Assembly (NCBI GenBank): GCA_964016885.1
Contig: OZ024760.1
Location: 27,962,001 to 28,026,000, forward strand
Direction: 5' to 3'
DNA length: 64,000 bases
Source: Eledone cirrhosa
Lineage: Eukaryota
Below the pieces are notes generated by a model, which did not search any database, was not told where the DNA came from, and worked only from the letters and a program-made list of their open reading frames with translations. Each line of letters starts with the position of its first letter. Position 1 is the first letter of the stretch. Below, one piece after another: positions 1-63,136 of the stretch. The translations under genes were made by a program, and so were the position numbers.

Positions 1-445
1 ATTTACGATATTAAATAAATGGAAACTATATTTATAAAACCATATTTATTTCATTATATATATTTCAGGGATATCATATTAACAATATGTTATGCCTTCT
101 TCAGACAAAATACAATATAGACAGTTTTATAGATAAATAGATTTGACATACCGTTCAACATCGACTTGTATTTGAAAAAGTTGATTTTCAAATACAAGTC
201 GATGTTGAACGGTATGTCAAATCTATTTATCTATAAAACTGTCTATATTGTATTTTGTCTGAAGAAGGCATAACATATTGTTAATATGATATCCCTGAAA
301 TATATATAATGAAATAAATATGGTTTTATAAATATAGTTTCCATTTATTTAATATCGTAAATATACTCCAAATACTTGTTGAGTGCTTTTATATCAGTTA
401 TAAATATTTACTAGTTGTAACCCAACAATTTAAATATAACTTTCC

Positions 446-446
<1 letters not shown>
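1..446 (+). mobile_element. Fold-back PLE-type terminus (family A): 178-bp inverted arms plus 3' tail ending at (TA)n
   Basis: 1-178 is the reverse complement of 185-362 around a 6-nt loop (agttga), and the left arm may extend beyond the window. Tail 363-446 (ttgttgagtgc...aactttcc) recurs at 2091-2160, 29230-29310, 34738-34782 and 37570-37645. Confidence 0.8.
251..316 (+). ncRNA. Type I hammerhead ribozyme (mirror copy on - strand at 47-112)
   Basis: Stem I TATTTTGT/ATGAAATA; core CTGAAGA 259-265; stem II AGGcATAaCATATT-gtt-AATATGaTATcCCT; GAAA 297-300; palindromic TATATA; UA cleavage site. Confidence 0.8.
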
Positions 447-1062: not shown

Positions 1063-1238
1063 ATAGGAAAAAGTATGACCCCCGACGGCAGAGCTCAAGC
1101 CGTTTCGACGGCTATTTCGAAACGGCTTGAGCTCTGCCGTCGGGGTCATACTTTTTCCTATTACCCACTCTACTACCCTAAGTATTGAGTACTCTGGTGC
1201 GTTATGGTCCATCTGGTTCCTTACCACACCTCCTTCGT
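1063..1238 (+). mobile_element. Fold-back element (family B) carrying the 3' half of a hammerhead plus a GAGTAC tail
   Basis: Arms ataggaaaaagtatgaccccc...gtttcga / tcgaaacggc...tttttcctat. GAAA-CGGC...GCCG-TC is an HHR stem III with GUC site. Related copies at 54097-54275 and tail at 62328-62395. Confidence 0.7.
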
Positions 1239-2044: not shown

Positions 2045-2096
<52 letters not shown>

Positions 2097-2160
2097 AGTG
2101 CTTTATATCAGTTATAAAAATATTTGCTTGTTGTATCCCAACAATTTAAATAGAACTTTT

Positions 2161-2208
<48 letters not shown>

Positions 2209-4915: not shown

Positions 4916-5115
4916 NNNNNNNNNNNNNNNNNNNNNNNNNNNNNNNNNNNNNNNNNNNNNNNNNNNNNNNNNNNNNNNNNNNNNNNNNNNNNNNNNNNNN
5001 NNNNNNNNNNNNNNNNNNNNNNNNNNNNNNNNNNNNNNNNNNNNNNNNNNNNNNNNNNNNNNNNNNNNNNNNNNNNNNNNNNNNNNNNNNNNNNNNNNNN
5101 NNNNNNNNNNNNNNN
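4916..5115. other. Assembly gap (200 N) following a long (TA)n tract
   Basis: Run of n. Confidence 1.
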
Positions 5116-5158
5116 TTAATTGCTGGCCTTGTGCCAAACAGTAGAAACAAATATATAT

Positions 5159-9194: not shown

Positions 9195-9479
9195 CATATT
9201 TAAAATGCTGGAGAGAACAACAAAGATTAACTTACTCTGCTTTTTACCTTGTGTAAATTTTCAATACCCGAATTACTTGATCGTTTTTTTGGCTATGCGA
9301 ATGATTGTTTAACCATCGTCTCAGTGTGTTTGGCCTTTAACGTTTGTTATAGCTCTGGTTCATCTGAACCATTGAGCACCTTGCCTCACATCTCGGAGGT
9401 TGTTTTTCGTTATTTCGTGGGCCGAAATGCGAATCTCGATAATTTATGTTTTATTATATATATATATATATTATATATA

Positions 9480-9832: not shown

Positions 9833-10112
9833 TATTAAATTACAAATATTAATAAAATAGATGTTCTTTTCATCAATTACATTCTATTATACATATTTCG
9901 GATGTACAACAGTACGTCCTCGTCAGACAAAATATAATGATACATGACATTACCCTGAGATGTTAAATGGTTAAGATTTAATCAAGGTAGTCTTGATTAA
10001 ATCTTAACCATTTAACATCTCAGGGTATGTCATGTATCATTATATTTTGTCTGATGAGGACGTACTGTTTTACATCCTGAAAAGAACATCTATTTTATTA
10101 ATATTTGTAATT

Positions 10113-10113
<1 letters not shown>
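9833..10113. mobile_element. Fold-back element (family A-like) with hammerhead at 9880-9934 (-)
   Basis: Apex gtagt 9987-9991. Minus strand TATTTTGT-CTGACGA-GGAcGTAC tgtt GTACaTCC-GAAA-TATGTA-TA-ATAGAATG. The right arm is deleted after GAAA. Confidence 0.8.
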
Positions 10114-10160
<47 letters not shown>

Positions 10161-10165
<5 letters not shown>

Positions 10166-10498
10166 ACAGGGAGAAAGAGACGATTATTAAGAAGAAAGAT
10201 ATATTGTTTTCCTTTTTTGTTTCTCTCTCTCTTTTTTCTGGTTAGAAATGATTAAAACGAAATGTTTTACTTTGTGTGAAGTGTTAAGGTATTAGTTGAT
10301 TTATTTATATTTACAATGGCATTTATTTATCTATTTATATATTTAATTATAAATATAAATAAAATCAACTAATACCTTAACACTTCACACAAAGTAAAAC
10401 ATTTCGTTTTAATCATTTTCTACCCAGAAAAAGAGACAGAGAAACAAAAAGGAAAAAAAATATATCTTTCTTTTTAATAATCGTCTCTTTCTCCCTGT

Positions 10499-10503
<5 letters not shown>
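10161..10503. mobile_element. Fold-back element (family F), centre-deleted version of 29353-29821
   Basis: Approx. 150-bp imperfect inverted arms tgaaaacagggagaaag... / ...ctttctccctgttttca between (TA)n tracts. Confidence 0.8.
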
Positions 10504-12268: not shown

Positions 12269-12325
12269 GTGGCTGTGTGTAATATATATGTGTGTGTATG
12301 TGTGTGTATATATAATATATAGAGA

Positions 12326-12790
12326 GAGAGAATTAGTACATCTACCAACATATGCGTACAGATGTACACTAATACTAGTAAATATATAAGTTATGTCAAA
12401 GTACCTAGGTGGTTCTATGCAGGAGGATGCAGAACAATTATATGAAAGACGTAAAATAAGAACATTTTAAAAATTAAAAATTAACTTACTTACTAAAATT
12501 TTCACTCCAACTAATTAGTTTCTGTAATGGGATAATATAGTTACACAATATAACTATCGAGAATTCATTACGTCATCAGGGAGTCTATTCTCAGCTAAGT
12601 TCCCAGGCAATGCGCGGACACTAGGAACCCATATAAAATAATAATTCAGTGGATGTAATAAGCTAGCGAGGACTAAATTCATAGCACTGAAAAAGTTCAC
12701 TGCCTCTGGTCAGTGGCAGATTCTAAAGAATCAATCACGTGACACTGAGGTTAGTCAGTTAGGAGTTGGGGTGGGTATTATGACAAGAGC

Positions 12791-12856
<66 letters not shown>

Positions 12857-13600
12857 TGAATTAGCAGTAGATTTGGCAAGTTGCTCAACAAATAATTTGA
12901 GATAATATAGAGAATTAGTACATCTACCAACATATGCGTACAGATGTACACTAAATGCTAGCAAATATATAAGTTATGTCAAAGTACCTAGGTGGTTCTA
13001 TGCAGGAGGATGCAGAACAATTATATGAAACACGTAAAATAAGAAAATTAAAAATTAAAAATTAACTTACTTACTAAAATTTTCACTCCAACTAATTAGT
13101 TTCTGTAATGGGATACATATAGTTACACAATATAACTATCGAGAATTCATTACGTCATCAGGGAGTCTATCTCAGCTAAGTTCCCAGGCAATGCGCGGAC
13201 ACTAGGAACCCATTATAAAATAATAATTCAGTGGATGTAATAAGCTAGCGAGGACTAAATTCCATATACTAAGAATAGACTCCCTGATGACGTAATGAAT
13301 TCTCGATAGTTATATTGTGTAACTATATTTATCCCATTACAGAAACTAATTAGTTGAGTGAAAATTTTAGTAAGTAAGTTAATTTTTAATTTTTTAAAAT
13401 TTTCTTATTTTACGTCTTTCATATAATTGTTCTGCATCCTCCTGCATAGAACCACCTAGGTACTTTGACATAACTTATATATTTGCTAGCATTAGTGTAC
13501 ATCTGTACACATATGTTGGTAGATGTACTAATTCTCTATATTTATCTCCAAATTATTTGTTGAGCAAACTTGCCAATCTACTGCTAATTCATTAGGTAGT

Positions 13601-13633
<33 letters not shown>

Positions 13634-13936
13634 GCTCTTGTCATAATATCACCCCCACTCCTAACTGACTAACCTCAGTGTCACGTGAACTTTTCAGTGC
13701 TATGGAACTTAGTCCTCGCTAGCTTATTACATCCCACTGAATTATTATTTTTATATAGGTTCCTAGTGTCCGCGCATTGCCTGGGAACTTAGCTGAGAAT
13801 AGACTCCCTGATGACGTAATAAATTCTCGATAGTTATATTGTGTAACTATATTTATCCCATTACAGAAACTAATTAGTTGGAGTGAAAATTTTAGTAAGT
13901 TAATTTTTAATTTTTAAAATTTTCTTATTTTACGTC

Positions 13937-13940
<4 letters not shown>
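12326..13940. mobile_element. Tandem-plus-inverted array of a 520-580 bp hammerhead-bearing monomer (4 HHRs)
   Basis: Units start at 12328 and 12910 (period 582), then the inversion begins near 13265. HHRs at 12504-12584(-), 13085-13166(-), 13279-13359(+) and 13803-13884(+): ACTCC-CTGATGA-stem II-GAAA-CTAATTAG-TT-GGAGT. Confidence 0.85.
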
Positions 13941-15184: not shown

Positions 15185-24045
<8,861 letters not shown>

Positions 24046-24227
24046 CATATATACTCTTGTTGTTACTGTTGTTGTTGTAACTGTTGTTGTTGTACTAGAC
24101 TCTCTGTAGTTCTACACAGATTTCAAGTTTATCTTCCATATTGGATTTCCCAATATTATGCAGCTTATGAAATACATCCAGGTCAGGGCTGTACAGATTC
24201 GGATGTCTTATAAGTTCATTATAAAGG

Positions 24228-24908
24228 CCGATTGGCAGAATCGGTAGAGCATCTGACACCATTCTTTGCAACATAGAGTTACGGCCCTTTATGTTCTGAG
24301 TTCAAATCTCGATGTTCTGAGTTCAAATCTCTGAGTTCAAATCTTGCCTTTCATCCTTACGGGGGTTGATAAAATAAAGTACCAGTAATGTACTGGGGTA
24401 CTTGCTGGCCTTGTGCCTATAGTAGAAACATTTATTATTTGTCAGGTTAACTTTGCCTTTCATCCTTACGGGGTCGATAAAATAAAGTACCAGTAATGCA
24501 CTGGGGTACTTGCTGGCCTTGTGCCTATAGTAGAAACATTTATTATTTGTCAGGTTAACTTTGCGTTTCATCCTTACGGGGTCGATAAAATAAAGTACCA
24601 GTAATGTACTGGGGTACTTGCTGGCCTTGTGCCTATAGTAGAAACATTTATTATTTGTCAGGTTAACTTTGCCTTTCATCCTTACGGGGTCGATAAAATA
24701 AAGTACCAGTAATAAATTGAGATAATTGGCAGTAATTGTTAGTGCGTTGGATACTCTGCTTCGTGGCATAGAGTTACGGCTCTTTACGGTCTGAGTTCAA
24801 ATCCCGCCGAAGTTGGGTTAGCTTTGCCTTTCATCCTTATTTGGTCGATAAAATAAAGTACCAGTAATGTACTGGGGGTAATTGCTGGCCTTGTGCCAAA
24901 AGTAGAAA
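24228..24908 (+). mobile_element. Nin-domain SINE cluster with 108-bp tandem amplification of the SINE 3' half
   Basis: Head at 24228; caggttaactttgc units at 24443, 24551 and 24659; second decayed SINE approx. 24725-24908. Confidence 0.85.
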
Positions 24909-28679: not shown

Positions 28680-29008
28680 AGGGAGTATAACTTGGAGTTA
28701 CTGTAGGTTCACCCGTGTGAGCACTCGATGTTTAGGTTCACTTCAGTGTCGAGGTGTAGAGCTAGACAGAGTGTATTATAGTGAAATAAGATAACAAGGA
28801 CGATTGGTTACTCCCTCATTACATTTATTGGTTGGTGACGCGCGTTTCGCCACTTGTAATGCTAGTAGCATTACAAGGGGTCAGACGAGCCGCAGATTTG
28901 ACTCGGGTAGGATCGATACAGATCGAACCTTGAGCTGATCAGTGGAAAAACGTGCGTCACCAACCAATAAATGTAATGAAGGAGTAACCAATAGTCCTTG
29001 TTATCTTT

Positions 29009-29043: not shown

Positions 29044-29306
29044 AGGGATAACTTGAACCGTTAAGGTACATTCTCGTTGGTTATGTCACTATTTATAAAA
29101 CACACTTTTTATTTTATCTGATGATAGCGTACCAAAATTTTGGTACTCTTGAAATATATATAATAGAATAAATAGGGTTTTTATAAATATAGTTTCCATT
29201 TATTTAATATCATTGTATATTATACTCCTGAAACTTGTTGAGTGCTCTGAATCAGTTATAAACATTTATATTTGTTGAATCACCAATAAATTGAATATCT
29301 CTTCTG

Positions 29307-29352: not shown

Positions 29353-29357
<5 letters not shown>

Positions 29358-29821
29358 ACAGGGAGAAAGAGACGATTATTAGGAAGAAAAAAATATTTTT
29401 TTCCTTTTTTGTTTCTCTCTCTCTTTTTTCTGGGTTAGAAAATGATTAAAACGAAATGTTTTACTTTGTATTAAGGTATTAGTTGATTTATGTATTATTT
29501 AACAATGGCATTTATTTATCTATTTATTTTTTTTTTATTGTCTATTACCGGTTTCAGCATTTTTATGCGACACCACACTAATACATTTCACTATCATTTG
29601 ATAATGCATAAAAATACTGAAACCGGTAATAGACAATAATTAAATAGATAAATAAATGCCATTGTTAAATAATAAATAAATCAACTAATACCTTAACACT
29701 TCACATAAAGTAAAACATTTCGTTTTAATCATTTTCTAACCCAGAAAAAAGAGAGAGAGAAACAAAAAAGGAAAACAATATATCTTTCTTCTTAATAATC
29801 GTCTCTTTCTCCCTGTTTTCA
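29353..29821. mobile_element. Family F fold-back element with U3-A8 variant hammerhead at the apex
   Basis: Approx. 215-bp arms. ctatcat-TTGATAA-tGCAT aaaa AT(g/a)Ct-GAAA-CCGG-TA-ATAG near 29591-29632. Confidence 0.75.
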
Positions 29822-29908
29822 TATATATATATATATATATAACTCGTGTGCTTCCTCTCCACATTTTATTATTATTATTATTATTATATATATATATATA
29901 CATATATA

Positions 29909-30183: not shown

Positions 30184-30190
<7 letters not shown>

Positions 30191-30576
30191 GTGAGGTTTT
30201 CTTTACAAAATGAAAAATAACCGAGGTGTCCTACACGAGTAAGAGTATAAAGAAAAAAAGATGAAATCGAAAATGCAACTGGAGTCTTATTTAAAAATAT
30301 ATATATATTTATTTGGTTCCTTTACCGGTTTCGCAGTTCTTCTGCTTTTCAAAAGTAGAGCTGAGATGGAGGGTCTGTGGTTTTTCTCACATCTGTGATG
30401 TGAGAAAAACCACAGATGTGAGAAAAACCTCAGATGTGAGAAAAACCACAGACCCGCCATCTCAACTCTACTTTTGAAAAACAGAAGAACTGCGAAACCC
30501 GTAAAGGAAGCAAATAAATATATATATTTTTTTTAAAAATAAGACTCCAGTTGCATTTTCGATTTCATCTTTTTTT

Positions 30577-30674: not shown

Positions 30675-30814
30675 GTACCAGTAATGCACTGGGTAATTGC
30701 TCGCCTTGTGCCTAACGTAGAAACAATTATTATTATTATATATATATATATTTAAAAAAATAGAGGTGTAACACACGAGTTGTGATATATTAGTAAAAGG
30801 AAAAGAAAATGCCG

Positions 30815-30850
<36 letters not shown>

Positions 30851-32300: not shown

Positions 32301-33660
32301 ACCCTCGTCTGGGATGCCACTTGCAGCGACACTTCCTCCAGCCGCAACCCGGTGCCGTCTGCGACTAACCCAGGTTCTGCAGCACTTCGGGCTGAGGAGG
32401 CCAAACTCTCCAAGTATCGGTCGCTTTCCGACGGGTTCGGGGTCGTGTCGGTGGCAGTGGAGACTTCTGGTGTCCTTGGCACTAGGGCTACCTCCCTACT
32501 TACCACCACAGGTACTGAGCTGGCTACCCGTAGCAGTGGATATTTCTAGTGTCCTTGGCCCTAGGGTTCCCTCCCTACTTACCAGCACAGGTACTGAGCT
32601 GGCTACCCGTAGCAGTGGAGACTTCTGGTGTCCTTGGCCCTAGGGTTCCCTCCCTACTTATCAGCACAGGCGCTGAGCTGGCTACCCGTAGCAGTGGAGA
32701 TTTCTAGTGTCCTTGGCCCTAGGGTTCCCTCCCTACTTATCAGCACAGGTACTGAGCTGGCTACCCGTAGCAGTGGAGATTTCTAGTGTCCTTGGCCCTA
32801 GGGTTCTCTCCCTACTTACCAGTACAGGTACTGAGCTGGATACCCGTAGCAGTGGAGACTTCTGGTGTCCTTGGCACTAGGGCTACCTCCCTACTTACCA
32901 CCACAGGTACTGAGCTGGCTACCCGTAGCAGTGGAGATTTCTAGTGTCCTTGGCCCTAGGGTTCTCTCCCTACTTACCAGCACAGGTACTGAGCTGGCTA
33001 CCCGTAGCAGTGGAGATTTCTAGTGTCCTTGGCCCTAGGGTTCCCTCCCTACTTACCACCACAGGCGCTGAGCTGGTTACCCGTAGCAGTGGAGATTTCT
33101 AGTGTCCTTGGCCCTAGGGTTCCCTCCCTACTTACCAGCATAGGCGCTGAGCTGGTTACCCGTAGCAGTGGAGATTTCTAGTGTCCTTGGCCCTAGGGTT
33201 CCCTCCCTACTTACCACCACAGGCGCTGAGCTGGTTACCCGTAGCAGTGGAGATTTCTAGTGTCCTTGGCCCTAGGGTTCCCTCCCTACTTACCAGCATA
33301 GGCGCTGAGCTGGTTACCCGTAGCAGTGGAGATTTCTAGTGTCCTTGGCCCTAGGGTTCCCTCCCTACTTACCAGCATAGGCGCTGAGCTGGTTACCCGT
33401 AGCAGTGGAGATTTCTAGTGTCCTTGGCCCTAGGGCTACCTCCCTATTTACCACCATAGGCGCTGAGTTGACTACTCCTAGCAGTGGAGATTTCTGGTGT
33501 CCTTGGTCCTAGGGCCACTCCCGCAACTCACCACCACAGGCGCCGAGCTGGCCAACCGCAGGCGTGAGCCTCGCGAGATGCAATGTCTCTTCCAGCGCAA
33601 CTCCTTTACCATCCTCCGGGGAAACACCTCCTCCATTCGGCCCGCTAAGGCTGTGGGGCG
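32301..33660 (+). mobile_element. CRE-clade non-LTR retrotransposon RLE 3' fragment split by an internal 79-bp tandem expansion
   Basis: LVWDATCSDT...AALRAEEAKLSKYRSL...VAVETSGVLG before the array and ELANRRREPREMQCLFQRNSFTILRGNTSSI after it, matching CRE RLE WDAT / AE..K..KY / VET.G / QR.S..I.RGN motifs. Confidence 0.85.
32454..33550 (+). repeat. 79-bp minisatellite (13 full units plus a partial one)
   Basis: gcagtgga starts every 79 bp from 32454 to 33481. Confidence 0.95.
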
Positions 33661-34916: not shown

Positions 34917-35324
34917 CTATTTACTGATCTATAACATACTTGACCTCCTTTTCAACCCAAGAGATACATAAAACATATGCGCATATTGATCAACAGTGGG
35001 GTTACATTTTATTGCATACATAACCATAAATAGTACCCTTAATACTATATATATATATATATACTCAATTACAGAATGAACAACACAATATATTTATTTC
35101 ATTACCGAAGTTGATGATGCTTGCAGAAACATCTAGTAAGTTCGTCAGAAGATGTTTCTGCAACAATCATCCAGTTTCTCGCAAACTTTGGTAAGGAAAT
35201 AATTATAGTATGTTCTTTATTATGTAATTAAATAGCTCTGTTCTACACATAGAGCACTTTTCTTTCCTTTACCTTTTCTACAAAAATACTGAACTCAAAC
35301 ACACTTAGGATTTGAACTCAGATT

Positions 35325-36528: not shown

Positions 36529-36687
36529 TGGTGTTGGATGCTTAAAGCGTCCGTATGCGGTAGGCCGTATGAGCACTCAATGCCCTCATAGAGCAGAGTA
36601 TGATATCACAAAAAAAAAGAGAATCGGTGTTGCGACGATATATGTCCAATAAATTCCTTTCGTCGCAACACTGATTCTCTTTTTTCT

Positions 36688-36724: not shown

Positions 36725-37027
36725 AGAGATGAAATCGAAAATGCAACTGGAGTCTTACTTTTTTAAAAAATATATATATTTATTTGGTTCCTTTACCGGT
36801 TTCGCAGTTCTTCTGCTTTTCAAAAGGTGAGTTGAGATGGAGGGTCTCTCACCTTTTGAAAAGCAGAAGAACTGCGAAACCGGTAAAGGAACCAAATAAA
36901 TATATATATTTAAAAAAAAAATAAGACTCCAGTTGCATTTTCGATTTCATCTCTTTTTCTTTATACTTTCACTCGTGTAGGACACCTCGGTTATTTTTCA
37001 TTTTGTAAAAAAAACCTCACTTTCTAA
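36718..37027 (+). mobile_element. Family L fold-back with two intact U3-A8 hammerheads (36790-36827 -, 36852-36889 +) plus tail
   Basis: CCTT-TTGAAAA-GCAGaagaaCTGC-GAAA-CCGG-TA-AAGG. Tail matches the reverse complement of 30184-30245. Confidence 0.85.
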
Positions 37028-37049
37028 TATATATATATATATATATATA

Positions 37050-37282
37050 TTCAGGTTTGAGGTTCACCACTGTATAGAGCTGGTCTATTCCGTATGGTCA
37101 ATCGTAATGCAATAATATAGAGAGTACTCAACGTAAAGCAGTTCAACCGTCTTAGTTTTTATAGTTGGTGGTGCTATTACGGAGTTAAATATTATAATGA
37201 AATGACAGGAGGCTGGATTTGTGTAAATCCTTGAAAGGTTTTAAGGATTTACACAAATCCAGCCTCTTGTCATTTCATTATA
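37050..37282 (-). mobile_element. GAGTAC tail plus short fold-back
   Basis: Arms 37194-37232/37242-37282. Minus-strand ttgagtactc approx. 75 nt from (TA)n. Confidence 0.65.
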
Positions 37283-37376: not shown

Positions 37377-37642
37377 TCCAGGGATAACTTGAACCGTTAA
37401 GGTATATTATCCTTGGTCATGTCAAATATTTATAAAACATTTTGTATTTTATCTGATGATAGCGTACCAAAGTTTTTGGTACCCTTGAAATATATATAAT
37501 AGAATAAATATAGTTTTATAAATATAGTTTCCATTTATTTAATATCATTGTATATTACACTCCAGAAAACTTGTTGAGTGCTCTGATTCAGTTATAAACA
37601 TTTATATTTATTGAATTACCAACAAATTGAATATTCCTTCTG

Positions 37643-42954: not shown

Positions 42955-44130
42955 GGTTTGAGGGAGACGTGGCTGTTATATCTAGCCCTTCGTGAGACCA
43001 CATAGGAGCTTATTACACAGGATGTTTCTACTGGAAGTCATTGACCTCCAGACGTTTGAGGGAGACGTGGTTGTTATCTCTAGCCCTTCGTGAGACCACA
43101 TAGGAGCTCATTACACAGGATGTTTTAACTGGAAGTCATTGACCTCCTGACGTTTGAGGGAGACGTGGCTGTTATCTCTAGACCGTCGTGAGACCACATA
43201 GGAGCTCATTACACAGGATGTTTTAACTGGAAGTCATTGACCTCCTGACGTTTGAGGGAGACGTGGCTGTTATCTCTAGACCGTCGTGAGACCACATAGG
43301 AGCTCATTACACAGGATGTTTTAACTGGAAGGCATTGAACTCCAGACGTTTGAGGGAGGCATGGTTGTTATCTCTAGCCCTTCGTGAGACCACATAGGAG
43401 CTCATTACACAGGATGTTTTAACTGGAAGTCATTGACCTCCTGACGTTTGAGGGAGACGTGGCTGTTATCTCTAGACCGTCGTGAGACCACATAGGAGCT
43501 CATTACACAGGATGTTTCAACTGGAAGGCATTGAACTCCAGACGTTTGAGGGAGGCATGGTTGTTATCTCTAGCCCTTCGTGAGACCACATAGGAGCTCA
43601 TTACACAGGATGTTTTAACTGGAAGTCATTGACCTCCTGACGTTTGAGGGAGACGTGGCTGTTATCTCTAGACCGTCGTGAGACCACATAGGAGCTCATT
43701 ACACAGGATGTTTCAACTGGAAGGCATTGAACTCCAGACGTTTGAGGGAGGCATGGTTGTTATCTCTAGCCCTTCGTGAGACCACATAGGAGCTCATTAC
43801 ACAGGATGTTTTAACTGGAAGTCATTGACCTCCTGACGTTTGAGGGAGACGTGGCTGTTATCTCTAGACCGTCGTGAGACCACATAGGAGCTCATTACAC
43901 AGGATGTTTCAACTGGAAGGCATTGACCTCCAGACGTTTGAGGGAGGCATGGTTGTTATCTCTAGCCCTTCGTGAGACCACATAGGAGCTCATTACACAG
44001 GATGTTTCAACTGGAAGGCATTGAACTCCAGACGTTTGAGGGAGGCATGGTTGTTATCTCTAGCCCTTCGTGAGACCACATAGGAGCTCATTACACAGGA
44101 TGTTTCAACTGGAAGGCATTGACCTCCAGA
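42955..44130. repeat. 98-bp minisatellite (approx. 12 units)
   Basis: gacgtttgagggag recurs at 43051, 43149, 43247 and onward. Confidence 0.95.
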
Positions 44131-44965: not shown

Positions 44966-47958
44966 TGTAGGAGTCTAGCTAAGGCGAGATGTAACCCTGT
45001 AGGAGTCTAGCTAAGGCGAGATGCAACCTTGTAGGAGTCTAGCTAAGGCGAGATGTAACCCTGTAGGAGTCTAGCTAAGGCGAGATGTAACCCTGTAGGA
45101 GTCTAGCTAAGGCGAGATGCAACCTTGTAGGAGTCTAGCTAAGGCGAGATGTAACCCTGTAGGAGTCTAGCTAAGGCGAGATGTAACCCTGTAGGAGTCT
45201 AGCTAAGGCGAGATGTAACCCTGTAGGAGTCTAGCTAAGGCGAGATGTAACCCTGTAGGAGTCTAGCTAAGGCGAGATGCAACCTTGTAGGAGTCTAGCT
45301 AAGGCGAGATGCAACCTTGTAGGAGACTAGCTAAGGTGAGATGTAACCCTGTAGGAGTCTAGCTAAGGCGAGATGTAACCCTGTGTGAGTCTAGCTAAGG
45401 CGAGATGTAACCCTGTAGGAGTCTAGCTAAGGCGAGATGTAACCCTGTAGGAGTCTAGCTAAGGCGAGATGTAACCCTGTAGGAGTCTAGCTAAGGCGAG
45501 ATGCAACCTTGTAGGAGTCTAGCTAAGGCGAGATGCAACCTTGTAGGAGACTAGCTAAGGTGAGATGTAACCCTGTAGGAGTCTAGCTAAGGCGAGATGT
45601 AACCCTGTGTGAGTCTAGCTAAGGCGAGATGTAACCCTGTAGGAGTCTAGCTAAGGCGAGATGTAACCCTGTAGGAGTCTAGCTAAGGCGAGATGTAACC
45701 CTGTAGGAGTCTAGCTAAGGCGAGATGTAACCCTGTAGGAGTCTAGCTAAGGCGAGATGCAACCTTGTAGGAGACTAGCTAAGGTGAGATGTAACCCTGT
45801 AGGAGTCTAGCTAAGGCGAGATGTAACCCTGTGTGAGTCTAGCTAAGGCGAGATGTAACCCTGTAGGAGTCTAGCTAAGGCGAGATGCAACCTTGTAGGA
45901 GTCTAGCTAAGGCGAGATGTAACCCTGTAGGAGTCTAGCTAAGGCGAGATGTAACCCTGTAGGAGTCTAGCTAAGGCGAGATGTAACCCTGTGTGAGTCT
46001 AGCTAAGGCGAGATGTAACCCTGTAGGAGTCTAGCTAAGGCGAGATGTAACCCTGTAGGAGTCTAGCTAAGGCGAGATGCAACCTTGTAGGAGACTAGCT
46101 AAGGCGAGATGCAACCTTGTAGGAGTCTAGCTAAGGCGAGATGTAACCCTGTAGGAGTCTAGCTAAGGCGAGATGTAACCCTGTAGGAGTCTAGCTAAGG
46201 CGAGATGTAACCCTGTGTGAGTCTAGCTAAGGCGAGATGTAACCCTGTAGGAGTCTAGATAAGGCGAGATGCAACCTTGTGTGAGTCTAGCTAAGGCGAG
46301 ATGTAACCCTGTAGGAGTCTAGCTAAGGCGAGATGTAACCCTGTGTGAGTCTAGCTAAGGCGAGATGTAACCCTGTAGGAGTCTAGCTAAGGCGAGATGT
46401 AACCCTGTAGGAGTCTAGCTAAGGCGAGATGCAACTCTGTAGGAGTCTAGCTAAGGCGAGATGTAACCCTGTAGGAGTCTAGCTAAGGTGAGATGTAACC
46501 CTGTAGGAGTCTAGCTAAGGCGAGATGTAACCCTGTAGGAGTCTAGCTAAGGCGAGATGCAACTCTGTAGGAGTCTAGCTAAGGCGAGATTTAACCCTGT
46601 AGGAGTCTAGCTAAGGCGAGATGTAACCCTGTAGGAGTCTAGCTAAGGCGAGATGTAACCCTGTAGGAGTCTAGCTAAGGCGAGATGTAACCCTGTGTGA
46701 GTCTAGCTAAGGCGAGATGTAACCCTGTGTGAGTCTAGCTAAGGCGAGATGTAACCCTGTGTGAGTCTAGCTAAGGCGAGATGTAACCCTGTGTGAGTCT
46801 AGCTAAGGCGAGATGTAACCCTGTAGGAGTCTAGCTAAGGCGAGATGCAACCTTGTAGGAGTCTAGCTAAGGCGAGATGTAACCCTGTAGGAGTCTAGCT
46901 AAGGTGAGATGTAACCCTGTAGGAGTCTAGCTAAGGTGAGATGTAACCCTGTAGGAGTCTAGCTAAGGCGAGATGTAACCCTGTAGGAGTCTAGCTAAGG
47001 CGAGATGCAACCTTGTAGGAGTCTAGCTAAGGCGAGATGCAACCTTGTAGGAGTCTAGCTAAGGCGAGATGCAACCTTGTAGGATTCTAGCTAAGGCGAG
47101 ATGTAACCCTGTAGGAGTCTAGCTAAGGCGAGATGCAACCTTGTAGGAGTCTAGCTAAGGCGAGATGTAACCCTGTAGGAGTCTAGCTAAGGCGAGATGC
47201 AACCCTGTAGGAGTCTAGCTAAGGCGAGATGTAACCCTGTGTGAGTCTAGCTAAGGCGAGATGTAACCCTGTGTGAGTCTAGCTAAGGCGAGATGCAACC
47301 CTGTAGGAGTCTAGCTAAGGCGAGATGTAACCCTGTGTGAGTCTAGCTAAGGTGAGATGTAACCCTGTGTGAGTCTAGCTAAGGCGAGATGTAACCCTGT
47401 AGGAGTCTAGCTAAGGCGAGATGTAACCCTGTGTGAGTCTAGCTAAGGTGAGATGTAACCCTGTGTGAGTCTAGCTAAGGTGAGATGTAACCCTGTGTGA
47501 GTCTAGCTAAGGCGAGATGTAACCCTGTAGGAGTCTAGCTAAGGCGAGATGTAACCCTGTAGGAGTCTAGCTAAGGCGAGATGTAACCCTGTAGGAGTCT
47601 AGCTAAGGTGAGATGTAACCCTGTAGGAGTCTAGCTAAGGTGAGATGTAACCCTGTAGGAGTCTAGCTAAGGTGAGATGTAACCCTGTGTGAGTCTAGCT
47701 AAGGCGAGATGTAACCCTGTAGGAGTCTAGCTAAGGCGAGATGTAACCCTGTAGGAGTCTAGCTAAGGTGAGATGTAACCCTGTGTGAGTCTAGCTAAGG
47801 CGAGATGTAACCCTGTGTGAGTCTAGCTAAGGCGAGATGTAACCCTGTGTGAGTCTAGCTAAGGCGAGATGTGACCCTGTGTGAGTCTAGCTAAGGCGAG
47901 ATGTAACCCTGTAGGAGTCTAGTTAAAGCGAGATGCAACTCTGTAGGAGTCCAGCTAA
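44966..47958. repeat. 32-bp satellite, approx. 93 units
   Basis: tgtaggagtctagctaaggcgagatgtaaccc head-to-tail with no spacers. Confidence 0.97.
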
Positions 47959-53975: not shown

Positions 53976-54310
<335 letters not shown>

Positions 54311-54460
54311 CTACAGGACTAGGACTGTTTCATTCCTATTAAATCATCCAGATATTCATACGAATGAAACAGTTCTATATATAATAGAGGTGCCTAAACT
54401 CTACCAACGTGCAGAGTACCTTTTTTTAACTGTGATTAAAGCCCGACAACACTCAAGAAC

Positions 54461-54863: not shown

Positions 54864-55255
54864 CGAAAGGAGCTGTGTAGTTAGTGTAAATAAAGTTTAA
54901 AATGGTAGTATGGAAGAAACAAGAAAAGAAAAGAAATCCTTCATCAGCTGTATAAACTGAGATCAAGATTTTTCGGTATAGGTATTAAGGTGCAAATTAA
55001 TTGCGTCCGTAGGCGGTATGCCGAATGAGCATTCTCTGTTCTTGGGGAGCAGAGTATCAATAATATTAATATATAAGGGAATAAAGAATCAGTATTTCAT
55101 CATATACATATTTAATTACATATTACATATGTTTCACTGTCAATCTGCTCGAGGAACGGTCTATATATGTAACAGGTAAACAGAAATAACAACACAATTG
55201 GTACAGTTTATGGAAGTAATATATTAGGTTAACGCTTGAAATAGCAGGAAGAGGG

Positions 55256-60502: not shown

Positions 60503-61214
60503 TATATCAACTAGAAATTGATTGACAAATATATATCTAAAATAAACACATGAAACAATCACAGGGGATAATTTGTAAAGAGTGTAATCACACACAGCTA
60601 CGTAGGTAACTAATTAAAGTTTAACTAGAACTTTAAAAATAGATACCTTATAAATTGATTAATCTTCCTTGTATATATTTCATTAAAGAAATATATTTCA
60701 CCATTAATTGATCATTAAATCACAGTAGCCAAATCTCGGATTTTCAACAATGGAGAAGACTTAACTATCTGTATTTACACAGCAAATTCAAATCTGCGAA
60801 TGACTAGCAGCAGGTGTTGCATTTTTTAAAAATTGTCGATAACCCTATTCATGCCACTGGGATGAAGCTGGTACGATGTGTGTATTTTTTAAAAATGCAA
60901 CACGTGCTCCTAGTCATTCGCAGATTTCGATGTATAATCACAGATAGTTAAATCTTCTCCCTTGTTGAAAATCCAGATTTTGGCTACTGTAGTTTACCGA
61001 TCGATTGATGGTGAAATATATTTCTTTAATGAAATATATACAAGGAAGATTAATCAATTTATAAGGTATCTATATTTAAAGTTCTAGTTAAACTTTAATT
61101 AGTTACCTACCTAGCTATATGTGCTTACACACTTTTACAAATTATTCCCCGTGATTGTTTCGTATGTTTATTTTAGATATATATATATATGTCAATCAAT
61201 TTCTAGTTGATATA
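60503..61214. mobile_element. Long imperfect fold-back (approx. 330-bp arms, approx. 50-nt loop) with candidate U3-A8 hammerhead 60960-61045
   Basis: Arms tatatcaactagaaattgattgac... / ...gtcaatcaatttctagttgatata. CCTTG-TTGAAAA...GAAA-TATA-TA-CAAGG. Confidence 0.75.
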
Positions 61215-62293: not shown

Positions 62294-62395
62294 TACATGT
62301 ATATATATCTACTACTATATATATATACTACCCTAAGTATTGAGTACTCTGGTGCGTTATGGTCCATCTGGTTCCTTACCACAACTCCTTCGTTA

Positions 62396-63136
62396 TCTGT
62401 ATATATATAAAGATGAAGTTTTCTGTGTGTGTGTGTGTGTGTGAGGACAATTTTTAATGAGGGCTTATATATTCTAAACCATTCATGCGATTTCTTTGAA
62501 ATTTTTTACAGTGCTTCTTGCACAAAACCTGTACATGATCTAAAAAGGCTTTCAAAAATCGATATTGGAGCCTTTGGAGACATTAAAAAAGTTTCGGTTA
62601 CTTGTGTCAATTTTCGTGATTAAGTAAGACAATAGTTATCTTTCGTCAATACAATAAGAACTCATTTTTGATGACGTTGACTGTTCTCGAGTTGGTAATC
62701 CTGAGAACCTATTTATTTATGCTCTTGACGGGAAAACCAAAATGTTGTGAATAAATCTGCTTTTCAATAATCCAAAAGACAATGGGTGCTCCCACCCAAC
62801 ATCCACCTCTTTTTATAACGATTTGTTCATCCATCAGTTCCCCCCTGTTATGTCCAATCTGTGTTGTTATTCCAACAAATGTACACAATAGTGTCTATTA
62901 TTCACTTCACTTCTCTATTTCATGATGAGCTTTAACTGTTGTCAAACAAATGTATACCAACACTGAGTTTCTCTTGTTACATGGGATAACGGATGACACC
63001 GAGCTCACATATTAATTATTTCGCTGGAATAGTGCCTAAGGTTTTCATGTTTACATAAAGTACGTTTTTCTTCTATGTATTCAAATTTACTTTGTTTAGT
63101 TTACTTGAACCGCCCTAAGGACGGGTACTTTAGCTA

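Follow-up and report, generated by a model that had tools for sequence, protein, structure and literature searches.

The 64,000-nt window (the whole stretch of DNA analysed here) is repeat-rich animal DNA in which TA, CA, and TG microsatellites occur by the hundreds. Between the TA runs lie many islands of 70-350 nt, several of which contain minimal type I hammerhead cores together with 5' ends inverted head-to-head, the arrangement given for Penelope-like elements (PLEs) in the available text of PMC8557442. Near-perfect palindromic islands, of a type common for inverted PLE 5' ends, are located between TA runs at 64-299, 9836-10115, 10162-10502, 29354-29820, 36780-36899, and 60537-61176. The window also contains tandem arrays (24344-24713, 32454-33552, 43000-44130, and 44970-47950) made of a 108-nt SINE 3' part and of units of 79, ~83, and ~32 nt, a degenerate TA/TG microsatellite of ~9 kb (15185-24053) that encloses the family E element described below, and a 200-N gap at ~4917-5116. 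A tRNA-like SINE, which we take to resemble an octopus repeat, lies antisense (1713-1933) inside a hammerhead element similar to family A, with an 18-nt target-site duplication (1713-1730 and 1916-1933).

The 70 window frames tested (out of 126 candidates) give no RT or GIY-YIG match in Pfam, and tblastn with eight Hydra proteins as queries detects no Hydra ORF in the window. The best 150 of 566 Rfam matches in the window are microsatellite-driven miRNA matches below the gathering score. Copies of the hairpin-bearing units discussed below are dispersed or inverted, and no tandem arrays of them are present in the window.

Hairpin families in the window

The original prediction connected unrelated repeat families through a GAGT(A/G)C word situated about 50-80 nt from a 3' (TA)n junction. 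All 11 sites named for this word are present, within a few bases of where they had been placed, and group into eight families. The spacing is close to that proposed (the motif ends 43-73 nt before the next microsatellite run); the run behind the site at 54413 is (AC)n rather than (TA)n. Both strands of the window contain 24 matches to GAGTRC, 12 of which belong to these tails (the 11 named sites and one at 2096, missed earlier). The suggested positional enrichment is found within the window: among 123 complex junction flanks forming 90 families, GAGTRC occurs 40-80 nt before a TA/CA run in eight families, against 1.32 ± 1.11 (maximum 6) in 300 dinucleotide shuffles, a comparison that is not blind because the 40-80 nt range was taken from the prediction itself. 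At 0-39 nt the word is present in 2/90 families and at 81-121 nt in 1/90, while the antisense word in the same test reaches 4/90 (null 1.53 ± 1.20).

Flanking sequences had been considered otherwise unrelated, which overlooked that the 5' arm, ACTC, is conserved and that the inner stem covaries. Comparison of the tails indicates that GAGTRC represents just one arm, the 3' one, of a hairpin of the form RCTC-[variable stem-loop]-2-nt bulge-GAGY(RC), i.e., a structured signal and not a linear word. In the families picked earlier, ACTC lies 5' of each GAGTRC, the stem has 3-6 bp, the loop 3-40 nt, and the 2-nt bulge is on the 3' side.

In family A (plus strand), the hairpin (H1, 365-386) comprises ACTC (365-368), an inner stem (369-371/376-378) closing a 4-nt loop, the bulge (379-380), and GAGTGC (381-386), and is formed in both the MFE and the centroid structure. 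It is followed by a tail spacer of 59 nt (387-445, plus strand) that ends at the (TA)n junction 445/446. Upstream, a predicted minimal type I hammerhead (259-312, plus strand; core CTGAAGA at 259, palindromic TATATA stem III) is located in the right arm of the inverted repeat 64-299, with its GAAA 68 nt before H1. Further plus-strand copies of H1 are found at 29224-29245 (one T.T mismatch in the inner stem; hammerhead core at 29118) and at 37559-37581 (hammerhead core at 37453), where other genomic copies have (TA)n behind 37555. A tail-only piece (2091-2170, plus strand) follows a (TA)n run without a gap, its first base lying in the H1 loop.

Family B contains H1 at 1167-1192 (plus strand; 46 nt before (TA)n, with a hammerhead 3' half 48 nt upstream), a second copy with GAGTAA at 54202-54227 (plus strand), and a tail-only piece (62328-62399, plus strand) that starts inside the H1 5' arm after (TA)n. 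On the minus strand, H1 is present in families C (2264-2290; 43 nt before (TA)n, hammerhead core at 2356), D (37124-37185; 40-nt structured loop, 73 nt before (TA)n), E (21226-21252; 57 nt before (TA)n, hammerhead core at 21357), F (28721-28772; 34-nt loop, 43 nt before (TA)n), and G (36573-36599; inner stem of 6 bp, 46 nt before (TA)n); a relative of the last family has a decayed H1, recognized by eye, at 55029-55055 (minus strand). H1 of family H (54398-54419, plus strand) lies 43 nt before an (AC)n run, and the MFE favours another fold both here and in family C. Relaxing the outer pair adds three plus-strand families with compensatory GCTC/GAGC, namely J (714-737; 70 nt before (TA)n), K (9352-9379; inner stem of 6 bp, 75 nt before (TA)n), and L (35235-35257; the tail continues into another repeat). 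A hammerhead-anchored survey adds family M, with a GTTC/GAAC variant of H1 (13429-13454, plus strand) 87 nt after the hammerhead GAAA and a tentative, weak stem (13545-13567, plus strand) that resembles the second hairpin (H2) described below and is absent from the MFE fold.

The order hammerhead - hairpin - tail - (TA)n seen in the pLTR of Hydra elements is also that of the window elements. Full hammerhead cores are present in families A, C, E, and M (in L on the inverted arm) and 3' halves in B, F, and H, with no clear call in D, G, J, and K. Where the hammerhead is clear, in the window and at Hydra loci, H1 starts 44-87 nt after its GAAA. Four window hammerhead families of sufficient length (28474 and 55287 on the minus strand, 8756 and 28081 on the plus strand) have no hairpin, which is therefore not a general PLE feature; these repeats probably represent other PLE clades.

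The eight earlier families were picked blind to the hairpin, and ACTC with at least 3 bp and the 2-nt bulge is found in all eight; shuffling the 70 nt upstream puts the chance at 1.2-2.7% per family. The hairpin occurs at 40-80 nt in 10/90 junction families (null 0.23, maximum 2) and at 0-39 or 81-121 nt in 0/90; altering the bulge to 0, 1, 3, or 4 nt gives 1, 0, 0, and 1 of the 90 families. Across 11 families, the outer pair is A-U in eight and G-C in three, and inner pair 3 is C-G in four, U-A in four, G-C in two, and A-U in one. G.U exceeds A.C by 6 to 1 at five scored positions, which favours the sense strand as the folded one. In alignment A1 (22 rows, nine pattern-selected and two misaligned), paired cells amount to 90.6% versus 77.2% after shuffling (0/500), this test and the 11-family scoring leaning towards structure because rows were chosen or registered on the hairpin.

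Folded as single hairpins, families B, D, F, G, J, and K, the family A copy at 381, and both hairpins of the Hydra locus L055 adopt the proposed form, and C, E, H, L, and the family A copy at 37576 give a shifted, partial, or other fold. The folds are marginal (z from -0.2 to -2.8), so the evidence for the hairpin is comparative, not thermodynamic. TA/AT dinucleotides before H1 are modestly frequent (3.7 per 10 nt, compared with 2.0 ± 1.7 nearby).

The words ctcgtgta and ctcgtgtg (36972 and 29843), proposed as variants of the motif, have neither GAGY nor the 2-nt bulge, and the one at 29843 lies 2 nt after a TA run. Repeats sharing CTCGTG are found at 36910-37026, 30185-30260, 30752-30818, 29842, 30620, and 10758, their short pieces beginning directly after TA runs. 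The family at 36910 contains a hammerhead 3' half and an unbulged stem ending in GGACAC, ~41 nt from the junction; with its copy at 30185-30260, it is possibly a diverged relative of the hairpin families. Among other candidates, 24771 is rejected as lying inside a SINE copy, 8440 and 28486 are rejected as chance or unrelated, and 36220, 30 nt from a TG run, is tentative.

Hydra-clade elements outside the window

A metagenome scan with a pattern made of part of the hairpin and a TA run (46 of 64 parts covered) yields at least 117 loci in 68 clusters, among them intact and broken Hydra-clade PLEs. At positions left free by the pattern, the outer pair and at least three inner pairs are formed in 21/68 clusters (null 8.1 ± 2.6, maximum 19 in 2000 shuffles), and at least four inner pairs in 13/68 (null 2.9 ± 1.6, maximum 9); the remaining clusters are largely chance matches. 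Pieces of Hydra-type ORFs are found at 6/117 loci (L022, L055, L061, L076, L077, and L082; 80 of the 117 have long flanks), and every ORF-linked hairpin seen is GCTC/GAGC or near it. A looser core search finds hammerhead cores within 200 nt in six structured clusters and in one unstructured cluster. One of the six (L016) lies inside bacterial genes and is rejected as a chance match. The strict hammerhead filter retains only two structured clusters because it rejects the bulged stem II.

The intact protein of L055 (P0001, 707 aa) contains RWK (MRWKAFF), DKT (ADKTT), and YRDD motifs and, by eye, a CxCx5C linker, a C-terminal GIY-YIG without CCHH, and CxxC and CxH near the end; its cysteines are invariant in 20 homologs. 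This motif set is the definition of the Hydra clade in the available text of PMC8557442, and P0001 is therefore a Hydra PLE protein. Pfam gives no match for P0001 at 1e-3, and its relative at L022 has a GIY-YIG match. Among 8000 scored candidates, 2524 are relatives of P0001 at E<=1e-20. A canonical hammerhead in the pLTR and a (TA)n insertion are present in L055, L082, L076, L121, and L123, and the relatives found can be assigned from their sequences to the Hydra clade, instead of the Neptune group named earlier for comparison.

A search based on the protein only recovers three Hydra 3' ends in a bacterial symbiont assembly (G001; L121 and both strands of L123), and H1 is present in 3/3. These copies are probably host contamination; 400 further prokaryote genomes of the class of G001 (one unscored) contain no Hydra match. 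Viral contigs give three pattern matches, with free positions paired in none, and no relatives of P0001 or of the alignment. Rfam has no match at E<=1 over the hairpins of L121, L123, L055, and L082.

Published consensus sequences agree in part. In the available portion of Craig File S7 (PMC8557442), the hairpin is recognized by eye in four of six Hydra consensus sequences (Ajap-1, Ajap-2, Amil-2, and Crog, the last by eye a variant with a GTGC arm), and the Amil-1 and Obim sequences end 61 and 49 nt after the hammerhead GAAA, approximately where the hairpin would start. For Naiad/Chlamys, six 8-mers give 22 matches in the available Craig supplement; by eye, the hairpin forms in a single Naiad sequence (Mmer), which is no more than chance would give, and in a single Hydra sequence. 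Short elements, the C-terminal GIY-YIG, the hammerhead in the pLTR, and (TA)n targets are features shared with the Hydra clade as described in the available text of PMC8557442, whereas the window copies have no ORF and are mostly ACTC/GAGT. As these copies are non-coding, their Hydra membership is limited to "pLTR-like", and the ACTC/GAGT families are tied to Hydra by architecture only.

Second hairpin and insertion junctions

Coding copies contain a second hairpin (H2) ~55-65 nt past H1, just before the ATG. At the tandem junction of L121, the order is ORF end, hammerhead (1256), H1 (1335), 41 nt, H2 (1398), and ATG (1436), and the TA-rich bases before H1 and H2 are alike. The succession H1, H2, ATG is also present in L055 and, by eye, in the published Hydra-1_Ajap, whose consensus in the available file begins 2 nt before H1 and at its 3' end stops short of H1 (by eye). 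In L055, L061, and L121, the distance from H2 to the ATG is 20-30 nt; H2 is clear in three elements (L055, L121 with one inner pair, and Ajap-1) and weak in L061, family M, and the available consensus sequences of Crog and Obim. L055 has a (TA)9 run separated by 34 nt from the preceding H1 and by 4 nt from the following H2, and L061 a TA run 9 nt before its decayed H2 and the ATG. With (TA)n just before H2 in these two elements, the tail junction measured earlier therefore corresponds to the H2 start of coding elements.

Four sequencing runs of this organism were compared with family A. Fifty-six contigs of run X1 and three of X4 enter (TA)n behind 37555, 3 nt before the ACTC at 37559, and further contigs jump from 37536-37547 to a TA run. 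Depth in X1 is 2.67 million at 37516-37526, 69 thousand at 37560-37570, and 398 thousand again in the tail, the drop at H1 being partly subfamily divergence because 9227 reads in X7 and 10011 in X8 continue past 37546, where their hairpin region is diverged. None of the 40 variants listed, out of 92, falls within 37559-37562 or 37576-37580.

Family M forms a complex inverted array (12315-13940), in which four copies of one hammerhead unit, differing in their 3' ends, are arranged around CTA/TAG repeats. One of the four (13808-13940) passes into (TA)n 3-8 nt short of H1, a second, located on the minus strand, stops a few bases short of the weak H2-like stem, and two extend 30 nt past this stem. 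Taken over all elements, insertion ends lie immediately 5' of H1 or, less often, of H2; H1 and the spacer would therefore correspond to the optional PLE "tail". Ends are not confined to the 5' side of hairpins, since the two family M copies pass the H2-like stem and the tail-only pieces start inside H1.

Proposed placement of reverse-transcription starts

PLE reverse transcriptases are the closest relatives of telomerase RT. The sole in vitro study of how they choose template and start, in its available text, mapped internal starts and not a binding motif (PMC11167929). In Poseidon PAc, according to the same text, reverse transcription starts internally at two sites bounding an optional tail; RNA is needed to +172, and the start at +111-118 lies in an AC-rich stem loop inside the ORF, with the binding motif undefined. 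The Poseidon PLE extends both target strands, is a predicted dimer, and has AT-rich targets (PMC11167929). By analogy, the elements analysed here would share with PAc two internal starts bounding a tail, the need for sequence 3' of the start, and AT-rich targets, whereas the Hydra signal lies in the 5' UTR, is duplicated, and covaries. No such bulged hairpin is visible by eye after +118 in the available printed PAc template (PMC11167929).

The bulged hairpin conserved in the Hydra-clade pLTR, in tandem pair, is likely to bind the RT/GIY-YIG protein and to set internal starts of reverse transcription just upstream of each copy, a reading that we consider reasonably probable. The best explanation for the covarying hairpin, for its position behind the hammerhead, its occurrence in Hydra elements, its second copy before the ATG, and the ends before H1 or H2 appears to be a signal in cis through which the PLE protein would fix the reverse-transcription start. 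The protein would bind each hairpin on the sense RNA, possibly as a dimer, and the cDNA would be primed by nicked (TA)n DNA paired to the TA-rich stretch that precedes the hairpin. A start at H1 would give a tail-less copy; a start at H2 would give a copy whose "tail" is H1 plus the spacer, with the motif 45-75 nt from the junction. The hairpin present in tails thus most likely sets a junction just upstream of itself, and the junction 45-75 nt downstream would mark the position of a second hairpin omitted from the insertion. The short window copies may represent Hydra-type pLTRs that are 5'-truncated or non-autonomous and were mobilized in trans.

RNA structures that recruit reverse transcriptase, common to autonomous and non-autonomous partners, are represented by the 3' stem-loops of LINEs and SINEs and by the R2 3' UTR. 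In those systems reverse transcription starts at the RNA 3' end, with the structure upstream of the start and included in the copy, whereas the Hydra hairpin would be placed downstream of a start that is internal, and the copy made from there would not contain it.

The distances to the downstream junction might instead reflect a single protein binding site acting as a ruler for a start 30-75 nt downstream, with H2 incidental. This is the geometry of the original prediction and resembles that of LINE and SINE 3' stem-loops. Window tails end 43-75 nt after the motif, structured metagenome tails mostly 28-45 nt after it (a range limited by the search pattern), and two family M copies 30 nt after the H2-like stem. 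This reading seems unlikely, given that the distance varies almost threefold among families, that many copies stop immediately 5' of H1, without any hairpin upstream, and that the downstream end coincides with H2 in L055, L061, and L121. The short distance from H2 to the ATG in these three elements would suit 5' UTR operators, engaged in translation control or RNA packaging by a protein on its own leader, with nearby ends resulting from TA-rich bases or from protein-caused priming or stalling. The TA/AT frequency before H1 agrees with such a role, as do the tail-only pieces starting inside H1, which a stall would give. Junctions are nevertheless situated 2-9 nt from the hairpin in unrelated families, and the Poseidon tail is defined by RT start sites in the available text of PMC11167929; operators are accordingly a rather improbable explanation of the ends.

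Recognition at the DNA level has a precedent, as the Penelope tail is needed for endonuclease recognition of plasmids (available text of PMC11167929, citing Pyatkov 2004). The invariant CTC/GAG letters could be read in DNA by the GIY-YIG endonuclease, and ends on either side of H1 could be cuts. We find such a DNA site highly improbable: covarying inner stems, a fixed one-sided 2-nt bulge, and the excess of G.U over A.C are better explained by a fold of the sense strand than by duplex DNA. Chance or neutral shared ancestry could be argued from the shortness of the motif, from a search range chosen after seeing the data, from the 47/68 metagenome clusters that fail the free-position test, and from the location of L016 inside bacterial genes. 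It is already largely refuted, and deserves almost no credence, in view of the window enrichment, the structure in 8/8 families, the free-position pairing in the metagenome, the 3/3 protein-first ends, and compensatory changes despite unalignable flanks.

Previous work already covers this class of element, including its hammerheads, TA targeting, tails, and internal initiation. The hairpins are not described in the available part of the Hydra account in PMC8557442, and no description was found in the literature searched (Repbase, Dfam, and subscription papers being outside the search). Judged from sequence comparison, the hairpin is real, and it is a probable cis-acting RNA structure, apparently not yet described, of a known retroelement clade. 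With non-LTR retrozymes, as presented in the available texts (PMC7229834, PMC7761336, and bioRxiv 10.64898/2026.07.22.740005), the window copies share a non-coding nature, a type I hammerhead, and a presumed derivation from a PLE pLTR; retrozymes are tandem hammerhead repeats making circRNA, whereas the window copies are dispersed monomers or inverted pairs. The available text of a 2020 review reports no conserved motif in metazoan retrozymes that points to an autonomous partner (PMC7761336), and the hairpin would be such a motif.

A covarying hairpin of 20-30 nt, kept across Hydra elements from several animal groups and located beside both tail junctions, provides a target for mutation, a short RNA for structure determination, and a tag assigning non-coding hammerhead repeats to a PLE clade. 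A broader formulation, offered tentatively as possible, is a portable "origin of reverse transcription" consisting of two tandem bulged hairpins, one per RT-dimer protomer, each of which would position a (TA)n-primed internal start immediately on its 5' side. If true, it would explain the optional PLE tail and name the helper of many orphan hammerhead repeats, and any RNA upstream of the hairpin could be written into TA repeats by a 700-aa protein.

Element 3' ends on opposite strands are also found paired on one TA run, in L082 (3208-3217), in L123 (1174-1189), and in the window (2170/2221 and 37026/37051). Such converging ends could represent hot spots or the extension of both nicked strands.
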